64,000 bases of DNA, from positions 5,855 through 69,854 of the forward strand of contig CAYZIN010000002.1 of NCBI GenBank assembly GCA_964478595.1, written 5' to 3'. The position numbers were made by a program. This stretch comes from an uncultured Candidatus Saccharibacteria bacterium. GTDB taxonomy: Bacteria; Patescibacteriota; Saccharimonadia; UBA4664; CAZJNH01. Each line of letters starts with the position of its first letter. Position 1 is the first letter of the stretch. This document shows positions 60,001 to 64,000 of this stretch, one piece after another.

Positions 60001-63000
60001 CTTTTGTTATTTAGCCATTAGCGGTAAAATCTGGCCAGACCACTCGGGGAACGGGAGGTAGTATGGGGACTGTGATTGTAGTTGTAACGTTCGGGCTACT
60101 GCTGGCACCGGTTATCTGGCTGTGGTGGCGGTACAACCATTTCGTGAAACACGACAGGACAACCGCCGGCGTCTGGCGCAGTTCCGACGGTGTTGAGTAC
60201 AACGTCGAGTCCGACATCTAGCGAGGAGGCGTCATGTTTTGGTTAATTATTGCTGCTTTTGCCACCGTGACGGCGCTCGTGGTCGTTTTCAAAGCGATTC
60301 GAGCCACCCGCTATGTCGTCATGGCCGAAGACTGGGACGACTGGGATGACCTGGAAGACTGGAGTGACGAAGATGAGTTTCGCGACTTCGTCGCTCAGAG
60401 TTACCCGGAGGAGAGCGGGTGATGTGGTGGATAGCCATCATCGCCGGAGCCTGGGTGCTTGTCGCTTTGGCAGCCTTGATCCATCGTCGGTCCCAGCGCC
60501 AATCGCCCAGACCCCCCAGATTGCGGTTGATTCCAGTCGATCACTTGCCCACGGGTAACCCAGGCCTTGAGACGCTGCGTCAGAAAGCGCAAGATCTTGA
60601 GCGCCGGATGAAAGGCGACCCAACCGGCGATGAGTGACGACCAAAGCGATGCTATGGGCGAATGGCTCAAGGACGCGCCAATCCTGACCCGGTGGATCCG
60701 CGCTTACTGCGTTCAGTTCGACAAGGCGGTTACCGAGCACGAGAAGCTCGTCCCGTTCGATGCCGGCGGGATCGTCAAAAATCCCGACCTACTTTCCTAC
60801 AACTAGTGAAGACGGTTGCCCCGAAGCAGCCGTCTTCATTGCTTTTACGTTGTAACTTTCAACGAAGACTGAGATTTGACTGGGGAGTAGGGTGGCAAAG
60901 AGGAGGACGAAGTTATGGCAAGACAGGGAAGACGAATTATCAGAAGGCGGACCGACGAGGAATTCCACGAGGCAATTCCGGCCAGCCAAACTAGTTTTAT
61001 TGAGCGATCAAGTCCAATGCTAGGCGCAGCCGCGGTGGTTGGCTGGGCGCTGGCGGTAGTTGAGGGAATTTTGGCGATGAGGCTGCTTTTTGAATTGCTA
61101 AGCGCCAATCCTAACACCGGCGTTGTGTCGTTGATTTTTTCAGTTAGTCGCCCGTTAGTCTCGCCGTTTTTCTCGGCGCTTGGCGGCACACTTAATGCTG
61201 GCATTGGTACCCTAGAAATGTCCACAATTGTAGCTATGCTAGTCTATGCCTTAGTTGCCTACTTACTTAGACTGACGCTTACGGCCTTTGCTTCCCCGGG
61301 CGAATACTAAAAACCAATCCACGAAAAAAGACCCCGGCCTGGGGTCTTTTTCGATAAGTGCGAGGTGGGAGAGCCAGGTAAGAACTGGCCCTCCCGGTGG
61401 CGCCGGGAAGTCGACCGGCTATGTGAGGTGGTCGCGCAACTATCCAGCTGCGAGGATGTCTTCGACGGCGTGGACTTCACGAAGGAACTGGCTGGCTTGG
61501 TCGGAGTCCGACCAGTAGATTCGGTCCTTCCAGCTGGCGAACAGTTCGCGGACTGAGTCGTACTGCTCGTTGCTGAGGAATACACCGGAGACAAGAGCTT
61601 CTCCGATCAGCCTGACCAGTTCGATTCTGGTGTCGGGGCCTAGATCGACCCAGCCGTAGATCCCGTTTGCGTCTTTGGTTAAAGCCTCGGACAACAATTC
61701 TGATACATTCATTTGAACCTCACTGTCGATGAACTTCGGCGGAACGTTTCCACCCTTAGGTCTTCGAAACTTTGAAAACCCGAGCGTGGAGCGGAGGTTT
61801 TAAGACCTCCGCGTCCGAGCCTGTTTCGGCGCGTAATGCGCTCTAGTCGCTGACCCAGCTATTGGCCTGCGACATATGCTCGTTGCACAGCTTGTAGTAC
61901 CGCGGCGTTTCGGCCGCGACTTCGAGAGTGCAGATGCCGTCACAAACCGGGCAGCCGCTAACCGCCGGCGGCGGCTCGAACGACTCGGGGTACTCCCCAG
62001 TGATGTGAACTTCGGCCCTGCAATGCGGTTTGTTGAGTGGGAAGAACTTCAGGTCGTGCCACCCGCGGGACTGTTGCTTTGGCCGAAATGGCCAGCTGTC
62101 GCGGCGCGACCAGCGGTAGGCAACCCACCGCAGGGCAAGCAGCGTACCGATGAGTATGGCAAGCACGTTACTCCAATGGCCCATGCTAGCTCCTTGCTCG
62201 GTGAAACAGGACTAGAATTTCGATGAACTTCGGCGGAACGTTTCCACCCTTAGGCCTTCGAATTTCTTCAAAAACCTGAGGGTGGAGAGGAGCGTTCATC
62301 TCCCCTCATCGGCCGAGGCAGGCGCCTCAAGGCCATTCACCCATGTTTCTAGTAGTTCGGACGCAAAACTCTGGCGTTAAAGGCGCTCATCCAGAGGTCG
62401 CCCCACGCTTCGTTGTAGGCGTACAGCCAAGGGCCCCAGAGGTGCTTGACGTCGAGCCACTCGCACAGCTCCTGGCGGGCACCGTTGATGTGCAGGTGTA
62501 GCAGGCCGCCTTCCCGAAGCAGATGCTTCAAGATAAACGTCATGCAAAAGTCACTGCGCAGCATCGAGTCGTGCGCCCCCATCCGCAGGAACCCGAGGTC
62601 GTGCTCACACTGGGCCACCCAGCTTTCGGCGTTGGGCGCGTCGGTGGCAATGACGATCTGTTCGGCGTCGTAGTCGACAGGCACAGTCGTCATAAATCGC
62701 TGCAGCTTGTCATAGACCATGCCTTTGCGTGGCATCTGGGTCCTTTCGGTCGGTGAAACTTTGGGTGATTGATTAACAAGGTACTGCGTGAAAACAATGC
62801 GTTTCCACCCTTAGGCTCTCGATTGCTCAAGAACCTGAGGGTGTCCCCGAACCGTACTGGCTCGGGGCACCTTGTTGCTAGACCGCGATCCCGGCGCCCA
62901 CCATCAGGCGTGGGTCCATGCAGGACTCCCAACTACCTTCTGGGGTTCGGTGTTCGAAGAAGCCCCAGACGATCATAGTGGGCCCTTCGGAGACCTTGAA

Positions 63001-64000
63001 CCTGCGCTGCTCGCCGAGGCGTTTAGCCTCGACCACCTCGTCGAGCTCGGCGACGTTGCGGCCTTCCCAGACCACATACGGTTCGCCTTTCTCGATCTTG
63101 CGACCGAGCTTGAGGTCGGCGATCTCGCAGTAGCGGAACATCTGGGTAGCTTTGCGGATTGCCTCGAGCGCGACGTCGTACTCGCCGGCGAAGTGCCAGG
63201 GTACGGCCCGCAACACGGGTCTACCACGGTAGCGCGCAAAAACCAGCCCGAACGTCAGCTCGTCTCCGGTCTTGGGTTCGACGGTTACCGGGCGGTCTCT
63301 GATCATCGCGTATCCGCTCACCCGAACCTGGAAACCGGCGCTCAAGTGGAAGAAGACCGTTTCGGTCTTGCCCCGAATCGTCGCCTCGAGGAATCCGAAG
63401 CGCTTCTCCGGCCTTGGGTCGAAGAAAACCACGTTTCCGCGATGCATCCCAACCTCCTTGGTCGTTTGCAACAAGAGTATTCGGCTAAAAAGAACAATGG
63501 GTGTTATTATCCACCCTTAGGCTCTCAAGAGGGTGATTTGAGAGGCTGAGGGTGGGTAGGAACCGATTTAGACGATTCCTACCTGTGGGAAAGAAGTTCC
63601 AGCTCCTTCCCCTGGCCGAGCGGGCGCTCAAGGCCATTCACCCATGCTTCACGCGGTTGCGTGCATTCGTTCGAGGAACGAGTCGACCTTCGCCACGACT
63701 GCCTCGACCAGATCGTCGAGTGTGTCGTACTTGGTGGCGAAGAATCCATTCGGCTTGTATATGCGTCCGAGGGCGCCGTTGCAGCAGAACGTCCACTCTT
63801 CGGGGTGTCCGTCGTAGAAGTTCAGACACAGCATCGGTGTGCCGCCGACCTCGCTGAACCGAAGATCGAGCTTGATCGGGTCGTAGCCAGTGCCGATCCA
63901 GCTGATCCGGATGTTCGGCAGCAACTGACCGCGCTTTGAGACGCGCTCGTTCACCCGGCCTAGTGTCTTGCGGAAGGCCTCGCTGGCCTCGTAAACACTA

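Follow-up and report, generated by a model that had tools for sequence, protein, structure and literature searches.

A modular, hairpin-forming repeat separates unrelated small genes in a Saccharibacteria chromosome

At the end of the 64,000-nucleotide stretch of Saccharibacteria DNA analysed here (the window), five small minus-strand genes are separated by four spacers, each with one copy of a composite palindromic element. This arrangement raises the question of whether the locus is an integron cassette array, as the original prediction proposed, and, if not, what the element does. The genomes of CPR bacteria, Saccharibacteria among them, are tiny, and the ways in which these organisms gain and rearrange accessory genes are poorly understood. 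We conclude that the array is not a canonical integron. The element is best explained as a lineage-specific, modular, hairpin-forming intergenic repeat, and the genes as horizontally acquired accessory genes lying between core genes of the chromosome. The genes are as follows.

61440..61712, minus strand: ORF1, 90 aa, the last gene of the array, with an identical gene call on Logan contig L134
61843..62184, minus strand: ORF2, 113 aa, with an N-terminal membrane anchor and a Cys-rich C-terminus
62349..62735, minus strand: ORF3, 128 aa
62878..63447, minus strand: ORF4, 189 aa counted from ATG, with a cold-shock/OB-fold N-terminal domain and a conserved C-terminal domain
63649..64000, minus strand: ORF5, the C-terminal 116 aa of a gene that extends past the window end

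The five co-oriented ORFs and their ribosome-binding sites were confirmed, with Shine-Dalgarno-like sequences at all four complete genes. The fifth is not the 101-aa ORF first described: its frame, closed by a stop at 63649, is open up to 63999, giving at least 116 aa, and runs off the window. The genes are mutually unrelated, and the cold-shock-domain-like ORF4 is the only one with a domain assignment; ORF1, ORF2, ORF3 and ORF5 had no family match in Pfam, PHROGs or NCBIfam, and we call them ORFans on the basis of these three collections. A 23-nt imperfect inverted repeat flanks ORF2. The GC content is 58.6% in 62001-64000 versus about 51% window-wide. BLAST found no match for the array among plasmids or for ORF4 among phages. 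On the chromosome, the array adjoins a YGGT gene. An independent Logan assembly, the 1.2-kb contig L134 that ends in spacer 2, matches ORF2-ORF1-YGGT exactly, indicating that the junction between array and chromosome is not an assembly artefact. A synteny search based on the YGGT gene yielded a single 1.2-kb contig, which stops at the array border.

The composite element consists of a variable GC-rich hairpin (hairpin A) abutting an imperfect hairpin of 39-45 nt (hairpin B). The stem of B is 18-20 bp long, with invariant 11-nt arms at its base (CCACCCTCAGG / CCTAAGGGTGG), a single C·A mismatch that is conserved and an upper part that covaries; the distance from arm to arm is 17-23 nt. B2, B3 and B4 were each located by palindrome pattern, folding and covariance model.

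61750..61789, minus strand: hairpin B1, left arm degraded (CCACGCTCGGG)
62244..62285, minus strand: hairpin B2
62805..62843, minus strand: hairpin B3
63511..63555, minus strand: hairpin B4
61791..61812, minus strand: hairpin A1, variable and GC-rich, abutting B1 on its 5' side in gene sense
62285..62307, minus strand: hairpin A2, variable and GC-rich
62843..62868, minus strand: hairpin A3, variable and GC-rich
63555..63583, minus strand: hairpin A4, variable and GC-rich

That all four spacers carry one repeated element was borne out by the core motif CCACCCTTAGG, found as exact plus-strand copies at 61750, 62244, 62805 and 63511. Allowing one mismatch added the partner arm at 62275 and a chance-like site at 37822, for six matches against an expectation of 0.94, a count attained in 0 of 100 shuffles, and the full palindrome pattern gave three matches where 0.00 were expected. 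The inverted repeat that had been proposed for each copy is present in B2, B3 and B4, while the left arm of B1 is degraded as listed. A covariance model of the hairpin recovered the four known copies alone across the 64 kb at E<=10, and neither this model nor the motif search found a copy in the remaining 61 kb. In an alignment of only seven sequences, 88% of the cells in the upper stem are paired, double changes occur at four pairs, and the covariation score lies above 500 of 500 shuffles and every slid control; the stability z-scores range from -3 to -8. These results show that B is a real, selected hairpin. In every copy A abuts B on its 5' side in gene sense, and the A+B pair always comes after a stop codon, is followed by AAAC or ATAA, and lies with the end of B only about 40-100 nt from the next ATG. 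The whole dataset comprises 7-8 copies from three genomes.

Around A and B, the spacers are mosaics of shared modules, of which tail module T recurs in spacers 2 and 4, right module R1 in spacers 1 and 2, and leader module U in spacers 2 and 3.

62311..62345, minus strand: tail module T (CATGGGTGAATGGCCTTGAG) with hairpin H0, directly 3' of the ORF3 stop, with a mini-ORF (MGEWP*) inside
63587..63646, minus strand: tail module T with hairpins H0 and H1, directly 3' of the ORF5 stop
61726..61749, minus strand: right module R1 (AAACGTTCCGCCGAAGTTCATCGA), 3' of B1
62220..62243, minus strand: right module R1, 3' of B2
62190..62207, minus strand: leader module U (GTTTCACCGAGCAAGGAG), including the ORF2 ribosome-binding site
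62741..62759, minus strand: leader module U, including the ORF3 ribosome-binding site

T and R1 are 96-98% identical between spacers of one genome. The shared 5' part TCGATGAACTTCGGCGGAACG, first assigned to four spacers, turned out to occur in two (61726-61768 and 62220-62262, 98% identical), and the tail CTCAAGGCCATTCACCCATG was indeed found in two copies, at 62326-62345 and 63627-63646, immediately 3' of the ORF3 and ORF5 stops. Folding closes each spacer into a multibranch structure, in some copies with an outer stem that contains AAC...GTT, such as AACAAGGT/ACCTTGTT in spacer 3. The stop codons overlap TAGCAAC, TAGAAAC or GCCTAAC. The leader and the tail of each ORF are complementary. The outer stems are heterogeneous and, taken singly, of marginal significance (p = 0.13 to <0.002).

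How far the element extends beyond this genome was assessed with one exact-pattern scan for each public collection of genomes, metagenomes and viral contigs. Between them, these scans and the contexts of ORF4 homologues place the element in just two further sequences: L001, a Saccharibacteria MAG that is syntenic, and Logan contig L135, with a diverged copy. Among genome contigs, the palindrome pattern found L001 as the one true relative along with unrelated single matches; among metagenome contigs, the matches were all unrelated; and among viral contigs, neither the strict palindrome pattern nor the tail had a match, a loosened pattern giving single-copy noise. As a separate observation, a MAG of 35% GC and related metagenome contigs (L002, L006 and L008) carry a palindrome of the same size and with the same termini twice in frame inside gatB.

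The array of L001 occupies the equivalent chromosomal site beside the YGGT gene with a different gene content, and its last unit keeps A+B although no gene follows. On neither side does ORF4 have the same neighbour in the window as in L001, and homology stops exactly at GGGTGGAA. The two genomes share the following block.

62803..62885, minus strand: 83-nt block with the last ORF4 codons including the TAG stop, CAACAAGGTG, A3, B3 and AA, 97.6% identical to L001 741-823

The block thus reaches 97.6% nucleotide identity versus 39% amino acid identity for the adjacent ORF4 homologues. The fusA genes of the two genomes, by comparison, are 85% identical. In L135, a homologous ORF4-A+B-ORF unit lies beside greA behind a perfect TTGACA-17-TATAAT promoter, 40 nt separate A+B from the start codon that follows it, and a hairpin with a T-rich tract closes the second gene. 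With a promoter ahead and a terminator-like end behind, A+B in L135 is placed inside an operon.

We then asked how much of the integron proposal these data support. Its architectural part stood. As in integron arrays and CALIN, the genes are co-oriented, small, mostly ORFan and mostly promoterless, each has behind it an imperfect hairpin whose base is conserved and whose top varies, the chromosomal site is fixed while the content varies between relatives, and the repeats break assemblies. A short ORF within a spacer likewise has a counterpart, since some attC sites are described with a short ORF inside (PMC8876359). Membership among integrons was not supported, on the grounds of R-boxes, attC enrichment and ORF/element coupling. 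The base of hairpin B (CCACCCTCAGG/CCTAAGGGTGG) lacks the AAC/GTT (R''/R') triplets, and, in line with the initial remark that a proper R''/R' pair was not evident, no consistently placed RYYYAAC/GTTRRRY pair was found on either strand of seven spacers. A heuristic scan for R''-L''...L'-R', used as a proxy for an attC covariance model, gave 20 matches in the 2.7 kb of the array (7.4 per kb) versus 426 in 61 kb (7.0 per kb), none consistently placed within spacers. Unlike attC sites, the element also lacks an L-box, an unpaired central spacer and the extrahelical-base layout, and the spacers are multi-hairpin, up to 200 nt long and furnished with leader modules common to unrelated genes. The reported absence of intI holds for the ORFs scanned, with no tyrosine recombinase in the 27 that were scanned of the 28 window ORFs of at least 200 aa, or in the smaller ORFs scanned. 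The 8 kb of L001 and the gene tables of L135 likewise showed no recombinase, and in L135 the unit beside greA has neither intI nor attI. The literature searched held no report of integrons in CPR/Patescibacteria.

Two further properties bear on the comparison with attC. The ORF and the 83-nt element do not evolve as one unit, in conflict with the concept of a cassette made of ORF plus attC. Folding by strand, the check suggested with the original prediction, gave a divided answer: of 16 hairpins, 10 are more stable as the sense (top) strand and four as the antisense strand. In the variable hairpins A2, A3, A4 and H1, all five wobble pairs are G·T in sense orientation. B4 and the L135 copy show the opposite preference, folding better as antisense; on that strand the conserved C·A of B becomes a U·G wobble. 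The sense-favoured stability of most hairpins and the G·T wobbles fit folding of RNA or of the top DNA strand better than the bottom-strand folding of attC.

A non-canonical, integron-like cassette system is nevertheless a rival that we regard as unlikely, not negligible. In such a system, a dedicated recombinase encoded past the window end, whether IntI-like, a different tyrosine recombinase or an HUH enzyme, would act on the folded hairpins of A+B or of whole spacers as single-stranded sites, and the base of B would be the point at which gene units are taken up, cut out and rearranged. Put more fully, and with the same low probability, the array could be the distal part of an undescribed CPR gene-cassette platform with composite DNA hairpin sites, in which the CCACCCTCAGG/CCTAAGGGTGG base replaces the attC R-boxes and modules are exchanged between co-occurring Saccharibacteria. 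The attC-like design of conserved base, variable top and conserved mismatch fits this idea, as do the presence of the element 3' in every unit, down to the terminal one of L001, the unit-level differences at one locus between diverged relatives with breakpoints at GGGTGGAA, the mosaic spacers, the ORFan cargo in one orientation at 58% versus 51% GC, and the fact that the window, L001 and L134 assemblies all break within the array. The multibranch folds with their occasional AAC...GTT outer stems, the motifs overlapping the stops and the leader/tail complementarity can be read in the same direction. Weighing against it are the failure to find a recombinase in the ORFs scanned in the 64-kb window, in the 8 kb of L001 or in L135, the base without AAC/GTT and the unenriched attC architecture, the heterogeneity of the outer stems, the start of L135 at a promoter beside greA rather than at intI/attI, the uncoupling of ORF and element, and the preference for top-strand folding.

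The near-identity of A3+B3 in two genomes with diverged flanks also suggests recent copying of the element alone. A+B, or B alone, might be a miniature mobile palindrome of REP-, RPE- or MITE-like type that is spread or gene-converted into gene 3' flanks on its own, apart from the genes themselves, an explanation that we consider quite unlikely. The 96-98% identity of T and R1 between spacers within a genome agrees with it, and the gatB cases (L002, L006 and L008) show that CCACCCT...AGGGTGG palindromes can behave as insertions, although the resemblance of L002 is partly forced by the search pattern. The other 61 kb contain no copies, however, the exact-pattern scans of the collections otherwise gave only L001, and there are no target-site duplications, transposase or RAYT. 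Moreover, A and the top of B vary strongly from copy to copy and include compensatory changes, a pattern unlike that of recent transposition. A MITE, one of the alternatives offered at the outset, was rejected because the flanks of B differ and are unduplicated, the copy interiors diverge with compensatory changes and dispersed copies are lacking. REP/BIME, ERIC, Correia and RPE elements are transcribed imperfect palindromes at gene 3' ends and between operon genes, are mosaics of short modules with possible roles in mRNA stabilisation and recombination, and number tens to hundreds of scattered copies in a genome. The element here is similar in being an imperfect palindrome 3' of and between genes and in its mosaic of short modules. 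It differs in its confinement to one array, its restriction to a lineage, and its lack of a GTAG-type head and of RAYT; dispersed palindromes of the REP/BIME type, also named at the outset, were rejected on the absence of copies from 61 kb of core chromosome, as was a dispersion like that of DNA uptake sequences. A duplex site of the Xer/dif or lox kind was rejected on the variable central regions of 17-23 nt. Rfam families were rejected too, tRNA-Leu being the only window match above the gathering threshold and the array showing nothing except sub-threshold spurious matches at E<=10.

The remaining possibilities concern expression. Repeated promoters, another of the initial alternatives, were rejected since the promoter scan found no sigma-70-like site in any spacer. 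Generic or intrinsic terminators were rejected as well: no T-runs are present, the other 61 kb have no copies, the scan did not report the A or B hairpins, and its single match touching the element was a 5-bp stem formed by the right arm of B4 and downstream sequence (63516-63499). Without a U-tract after them, the hairpins are not classical terminators. A more elaborate version makes each spacer an autonomous expression module, with terminator A followed by an operator B that overlaps a promoter, and with moron-like genes under one repressor. The invariant 11-mers would be the half-sites, and the right half of B does contain T(T/C)GA(A/G)(A/G), which runs into GGTGGATAAT in spacer 4 and L001, at a spacing from the conserved leader motif AATAC.CTTGTTGC that approximates the spacing from the TATAAT box of L135. 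Distant ORF4 homologues, too, have their own promoters and long leaders. We find this version very improbable, because the variable arm spacing of 17-23 nt is poor for a dimeric DNA-binding protein, recognition of duplex DNA gives no role to a spacer that is itself palindromic and shows compensatory changes, the promoter scan is empty and the candidates have a -35/-10 spacing of 11 nt, and a complete element follows the last gene of L001, where nothing is left to regulate.

We tentatively favour, at somewhat less than an even chance, sense-strand intercistronic RNA hairpins that double as recombination substrates. The absence of sigma-70-like promoter sites from all spacers supports an RNA function, as do the short distance from B to the next ATG and the place of A+B within the L135 operon; judged from the sequence, the array is probably transcribed as one or a few units, and we infer co-transcription followed by processing. 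A+B would act in the sense transcript as a 3'-end hairpin, setting or shielding the end of the cistron before it, or alternatively would modulate read-through and translation into the next cistron. A trans-acting factor, for instance an RNase III-type enzyme or a hairpin-specific RNA-binding protein, may make contact with the invariant base of B. Being repeated, the modules could serve as substrates for recombination or gene conversion, which, as the comparison between relatives suggests, would make the spacers mosaic and lead to whole gene units being gained or lost. Some observations argue against an RNA role. The nucleotide invariance of the B arms, mismatch included, exceeds a purely structural need and requires a dedicated factor; the sense/antisense asymmetry is modest; and the 97.6% identity of the 83-nt block goes beyond RNA function, because the other array copies vary freely in A and the top of B.

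Two further known systems offer partial parallels to the element. In the early mRNA of phage T7, RNase III hairpins of about 20 bp with an internal mismatch lie between cistrons and leave protective 3' stems. Hairpin B is compatible in size and mismatch and likewise lies between consecutive small genes, but its 11-nt arm is strictly conserved and a second hairpin adjoins it, and cleavage here is only putative. SAS/ESAS repeats are imperfect inverted repeats with a variable spacer and a conserved leader/RBS-associated motif upstream of many small genes. They resemble the element in an imperfect inverted repeat of variable spacing and a leader/RBS motif that recur among small genes; they differ in sequence and host, and the palindrome here belongs to the 3' end of the gene before it and comes with a GC-rich hairpin. 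SAS/ESAS repeats were reportedly described in cluster K mycobacteriophages by Pope et al. in 2011.

Repeats that are conserved at the nucleotide level, and more so between genomes than the EF-G gene, thus sit in a variable ORFan array at a fixed locus. The array would represent either a new expression punctuation with a dedicated trans factor or a new hairpin-based exchange platform outside the known host range of integrons. The element may provide a handle for finding such arrays, which are systematically missed because they break metagenome assemblies, and a way to test how surface or host-interaction genes become diversified in epibiotic bacteria.

ORF4 is a predicted cold-shock/OB-fold binder of single-stranded nucleic acid, and as such a candidate hairpin-melting factor encoded in the array itself. 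Some of its 64 representative homologues are named cold-shock proteins by their sources. The AF2 model has a pLDDT of 92 and matches Thermus Csp best in the PDB, followed by OB-fold proteins, with Foldseek E-values that are all weak (best 2.3e-3). ORF4 as the target of a diversity-generating retroelement (DGR) was ruled out, its divergence being spread beyond any variable region. In the contexts of the homologues (L135-L149), a related element occurs in L135 only; the remaining homologues come with an ordinary terminator, a tight gene junction, a promoter of their own or phage-like surroundings, and in distant homologues an ordinary terminator or a tight gene junction stands where A+B would sit.

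The end of the array next to the chromosome carries hairpins of other kinds.

61367..61395, minus strand: a different hairpin, GGGAGGGCCAG...CTGGCTCTCCC, after the last gene and without B arms
61324..61351, bidirectional: a canonical intrinsic terminator with A/T runs at the boundary between array and chromosome, kept in L001

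The window is made up of Saccharibacteria-like (CPR) core chromosome with a GC content of approximately 51%, carrying ligA, gatA/gatB, genes for L19, RNase HII, NusA, a RadA-like protein, a PBP, RecG, TyrRS, trigger factor, an ABC-F protein, and EF-G, and a single tRNA-Leu. Two features mark the boundary with the small-gene array:

60915-61310, plus strand, YGGT-family gene, the last gene before the array boundary
61324-61351, canonical bidirectional terminator, between the YGGT-family gene and the array

Past this terminator, where the array starts, GC climbs to 56-59%. The array of small minus-strand genes with a conserved hairpin element, as originally predicted, was confirmed, and its core motif is highly non-random; of the five ORFs counted there, four are complete (90, 113, 128, and 189 aa) and the fifth extends past the window end. 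The spacers are 130-201 nt long. An independent Logan assembly carries an identical ORF2-ORF1-YGGT segment and breaks within a 43-nt repeat common to spacers 1 and 2. Elsewhere in the window, at 17137-18414, four further small ORFs on the minus strand (93, 151, 85, and 92 aa) form a second tightly spaced group, whose local GC content of 54-56% exceeds that of its surroundings; it has no Pfam matches and no spacer hairpins. The tRNA-Leu lies at 35793-35878, and approximately 700 nt downstream is a minus-strand 420-aa ORF (36589-37851), which has no Pfam match and by Pfam is not an integrase.

In gene sense, the spacers run from the stop codon through an optional tail module (T), a variable GC-rich hairpin (A), a 39-45 nt imperfect hairpin (B) abutting it, and an optional right module (R1) to the leader, which consists partly of a shared module (U), and the RBS. 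T, where present, bears one or two small hairpins, and T, R1, and U are combined differently from spacer to spacer, resulting in mosaic spacers. The stem of B comprises 18-20 bp with a single internal mismatch; a C·A mismatch is found at position 8 in all window copies. The base arms of B, CCACCCTCAGG and CCTAAGGGTGG, are invariant, and the upper stem varies among copies with the pairing kept. In an alignment of only seven sequences, 88% of the cells are paired and compensatory changes on both sides are seen at four pairs. The covariation score, likewise from only seven sequences, was higher than in any of 500 shuffles or any slid control. Searching the 64-kb window with a covariance model of B gave no further copies. 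The Shine-Dalgarno sequence is complementary to 16S rRNA at its 3' end; the right arm of B, UAAGGGUGGA (e.g., 62244-62254 and 62805-62815), is Shine-Dalgarno-like, the left arm resembles an anti-SD, and no start codon stands at RBS distance from the right arm in the window.

The array had been proposed as a possible integron-like cassette array with attC sites, whose invariant feature is the R-box AAC/GTT pair at the foot of the bottom-strand fold. This pair is absent from B, no consistently placed RYYYAAC/GTTRRRY pair was found on either strand of the seven spacers, and a permissive R''-L''...L'-R' scan gave 7.4 per kb in the array versus 7.0 per kb in the rest of the window, which together argue against integron membership. 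In line with the lack of intI noted in the window, no recombinase domain was detected in the window ORFs scanned, a set that leaves out two large ORFs at 42.7-50.1 kb. The cassette-like behaviour is real, and the integron label is not earned. Integron-like hints persist: whole spacers can form closed multibranch folds, spacer 3 has an outer stem (AAC-AAGGT/ACCTT-GTT), TAGCAAC, TAGAAAC, or GCCTAAC overlaps several array stop codons, and each array ORF has a leader complementary to its own tail over 7-10 bp (CCTGTTTC/GAAACAGG for ORF2, CTTGTTGC/GCAACAAG for ORF4; 10 bp in L001, the relative described below), with shuffle p-values of 0.13, 0.02, 0.11, 0.008, and <0.002. Because the tails also pair with the leader of the same spacer, we take these repeats to reflect a family-level palindromic character of entire spacers and not precise R boxes. 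A non-canonical cassette platform recombining via the hairpins is, on balance, rather unlikely. A 23-nt inverted repeat at 74% (61820-61842/62188-62210) flanks the ORF2 coding sequence almost exactly.

The exact palindrome pattern was searched once in each public collection and returned only one true relative, the Saccharibacteria MAG contig L001, which begins within its own array and whose chromosomal flank is syntenic with the window. At the nucleotide level the two contigs are 85% identical in fusA and 78% in the 391-aa gene; their YGGT proteins are 55% identical. In L001, the ORF4 homologue (39% identical) is the final gene before the terminator, and upstream of it both the gene and the A+B copy differ from the window. 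The A+B after ORF4 is 97.6% identical (81/83 nt; window 62803-62885, L001 741-823), from the stop codon to GGGTGGAA. Therefore, at this fixed locus gene content changes in whole units, and the terminal gene keeps its element. The element and the adjoining ORF, however, clearly do not have one common history. The 83-nt non-coding block outdoes in conservation every coding sequence compared between the two contigs.

The 83-nt identity supports a miniature mobile palindromic element, as do CCACCCT...AGGGTGG palindromes of equal size that are inserted, in frame, within the gatB gene of an unrelated MAG (L002, 35% GC), but their likeness to B is partly imposed by the search pattern, and we consider this explanation unlikely. 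The two GC-rich gatB palindromes, approximately 45 nt each (4074-4118, CCACCCTTGGGGTGTCC...GGACACCCCAAGGGTGG; 4524-4568, TCACCCTCAGGGTGTCC...GGACACCCTAAGGGTGG), match B in termini and size, are shared by related metagenome contigs (L006 1269-1312, L008 6969-7012), and look like RPE-like palindromic insertions within coding sequence.

The REP-like, MITE, terminator, and promoter alternatives also fell away. REP/BIME-like or DNA-uptake-like dispersion was ruled out for the accessible sequence by motif and covariance-model searches, and neither target-site duplications nor near-identical dispersed copies, as expected of a MITE, are present. Classical terminators require a U-tract, which is lacking here, and neither the A nor the B hairpins were among the hits of the terminator scan. 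An Rfam search gave no family match for the element, and a scan of the array spacers detected no sigma-70-like promoters. The element belongs to no known family among those tested and is rare, being found on three contigs.

The third contig emerged from the ORF4 family (64 representatives), whose homologues were found in CPR genomes and on a single phage-like contig. ORF4 has a cold-shock/OB-fold N-terminal domain (AF2 model, pLDDT 92; closest PDB match Thermus Csp, with a weak Foldseek E-value of 2.3e-3) and a conserved C-terminal domain. In three genomes the leader of the gene carries the conserved motif AATAC(C)CTTGTTGC. A related A+B, CCACCCCTAGG...CTCTAGGAGTGG, follows only one homologue, on Logan contig L135 (GC 53%). 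A perfect sigma-70 consensus promoter (1089-1122, TTGACA-17-TATAAT) is located there between greA, which lies upstream, and the ORF4 homologue, which follows after 180 nt. A+B precedes the next start codon by 40 nt, and a hairpin plus a T-rich tract closes the second gene. This unit is a two-gene operon enclosing A+B, with neither an integrase nor attI at its head. Consensus sigma-70 promoter sequences are thus present in this group, so that their lack in the window spacers is meaningful. An operator/promoter module is very improbable.

We tentatively favour a role of the element at the RNA level in the sense transcript, a reading held with less than even confidence. The hairpins stand directly 3' of stop codons and near the next RBS, in what L135 indicates to be an operon. 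The sense strand gives better folding for most hairpins and all wobble pairs of the variable hairpins are G·T in the sense orientation, both of which would favour such a role, and the stem of B, with its one internal mismatch, has the size of an RNase III-type or protein-bound hairpin. Being repeats, the modules would also promote homologous recombination and gene conversion; such exchange would account both for the mosaic spacers and for the whole-unit differences from L001. An RNA role does not account for the nucleotide-invariant arms of B, nor for the conservation of A3+B3 (spacer 3) between genomes beyond that of EF-G while other copies differ freely; this suggests that the element alone was copied recently, between genomes or out of a shared pool. 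Module T contains a conserved mini-ORF, ATG GGT GAA TGG CCT TGA (MGEWP*):

62328-62345, minus strand, mini-ORF MGEWP*, beginning 4 nt past the ORF3 stop codon
63629-63646, minus strand, mini-ORF MGEWP*, beginning 3 nt past the ORF5 stop codon

True attC hairpins in mRNA act chiefly as translational barriers that are relieved by internal short ORFs (review, PMC8876359), and by analogy the mini-ORF of module T may be the counterpart of those short ORFs.
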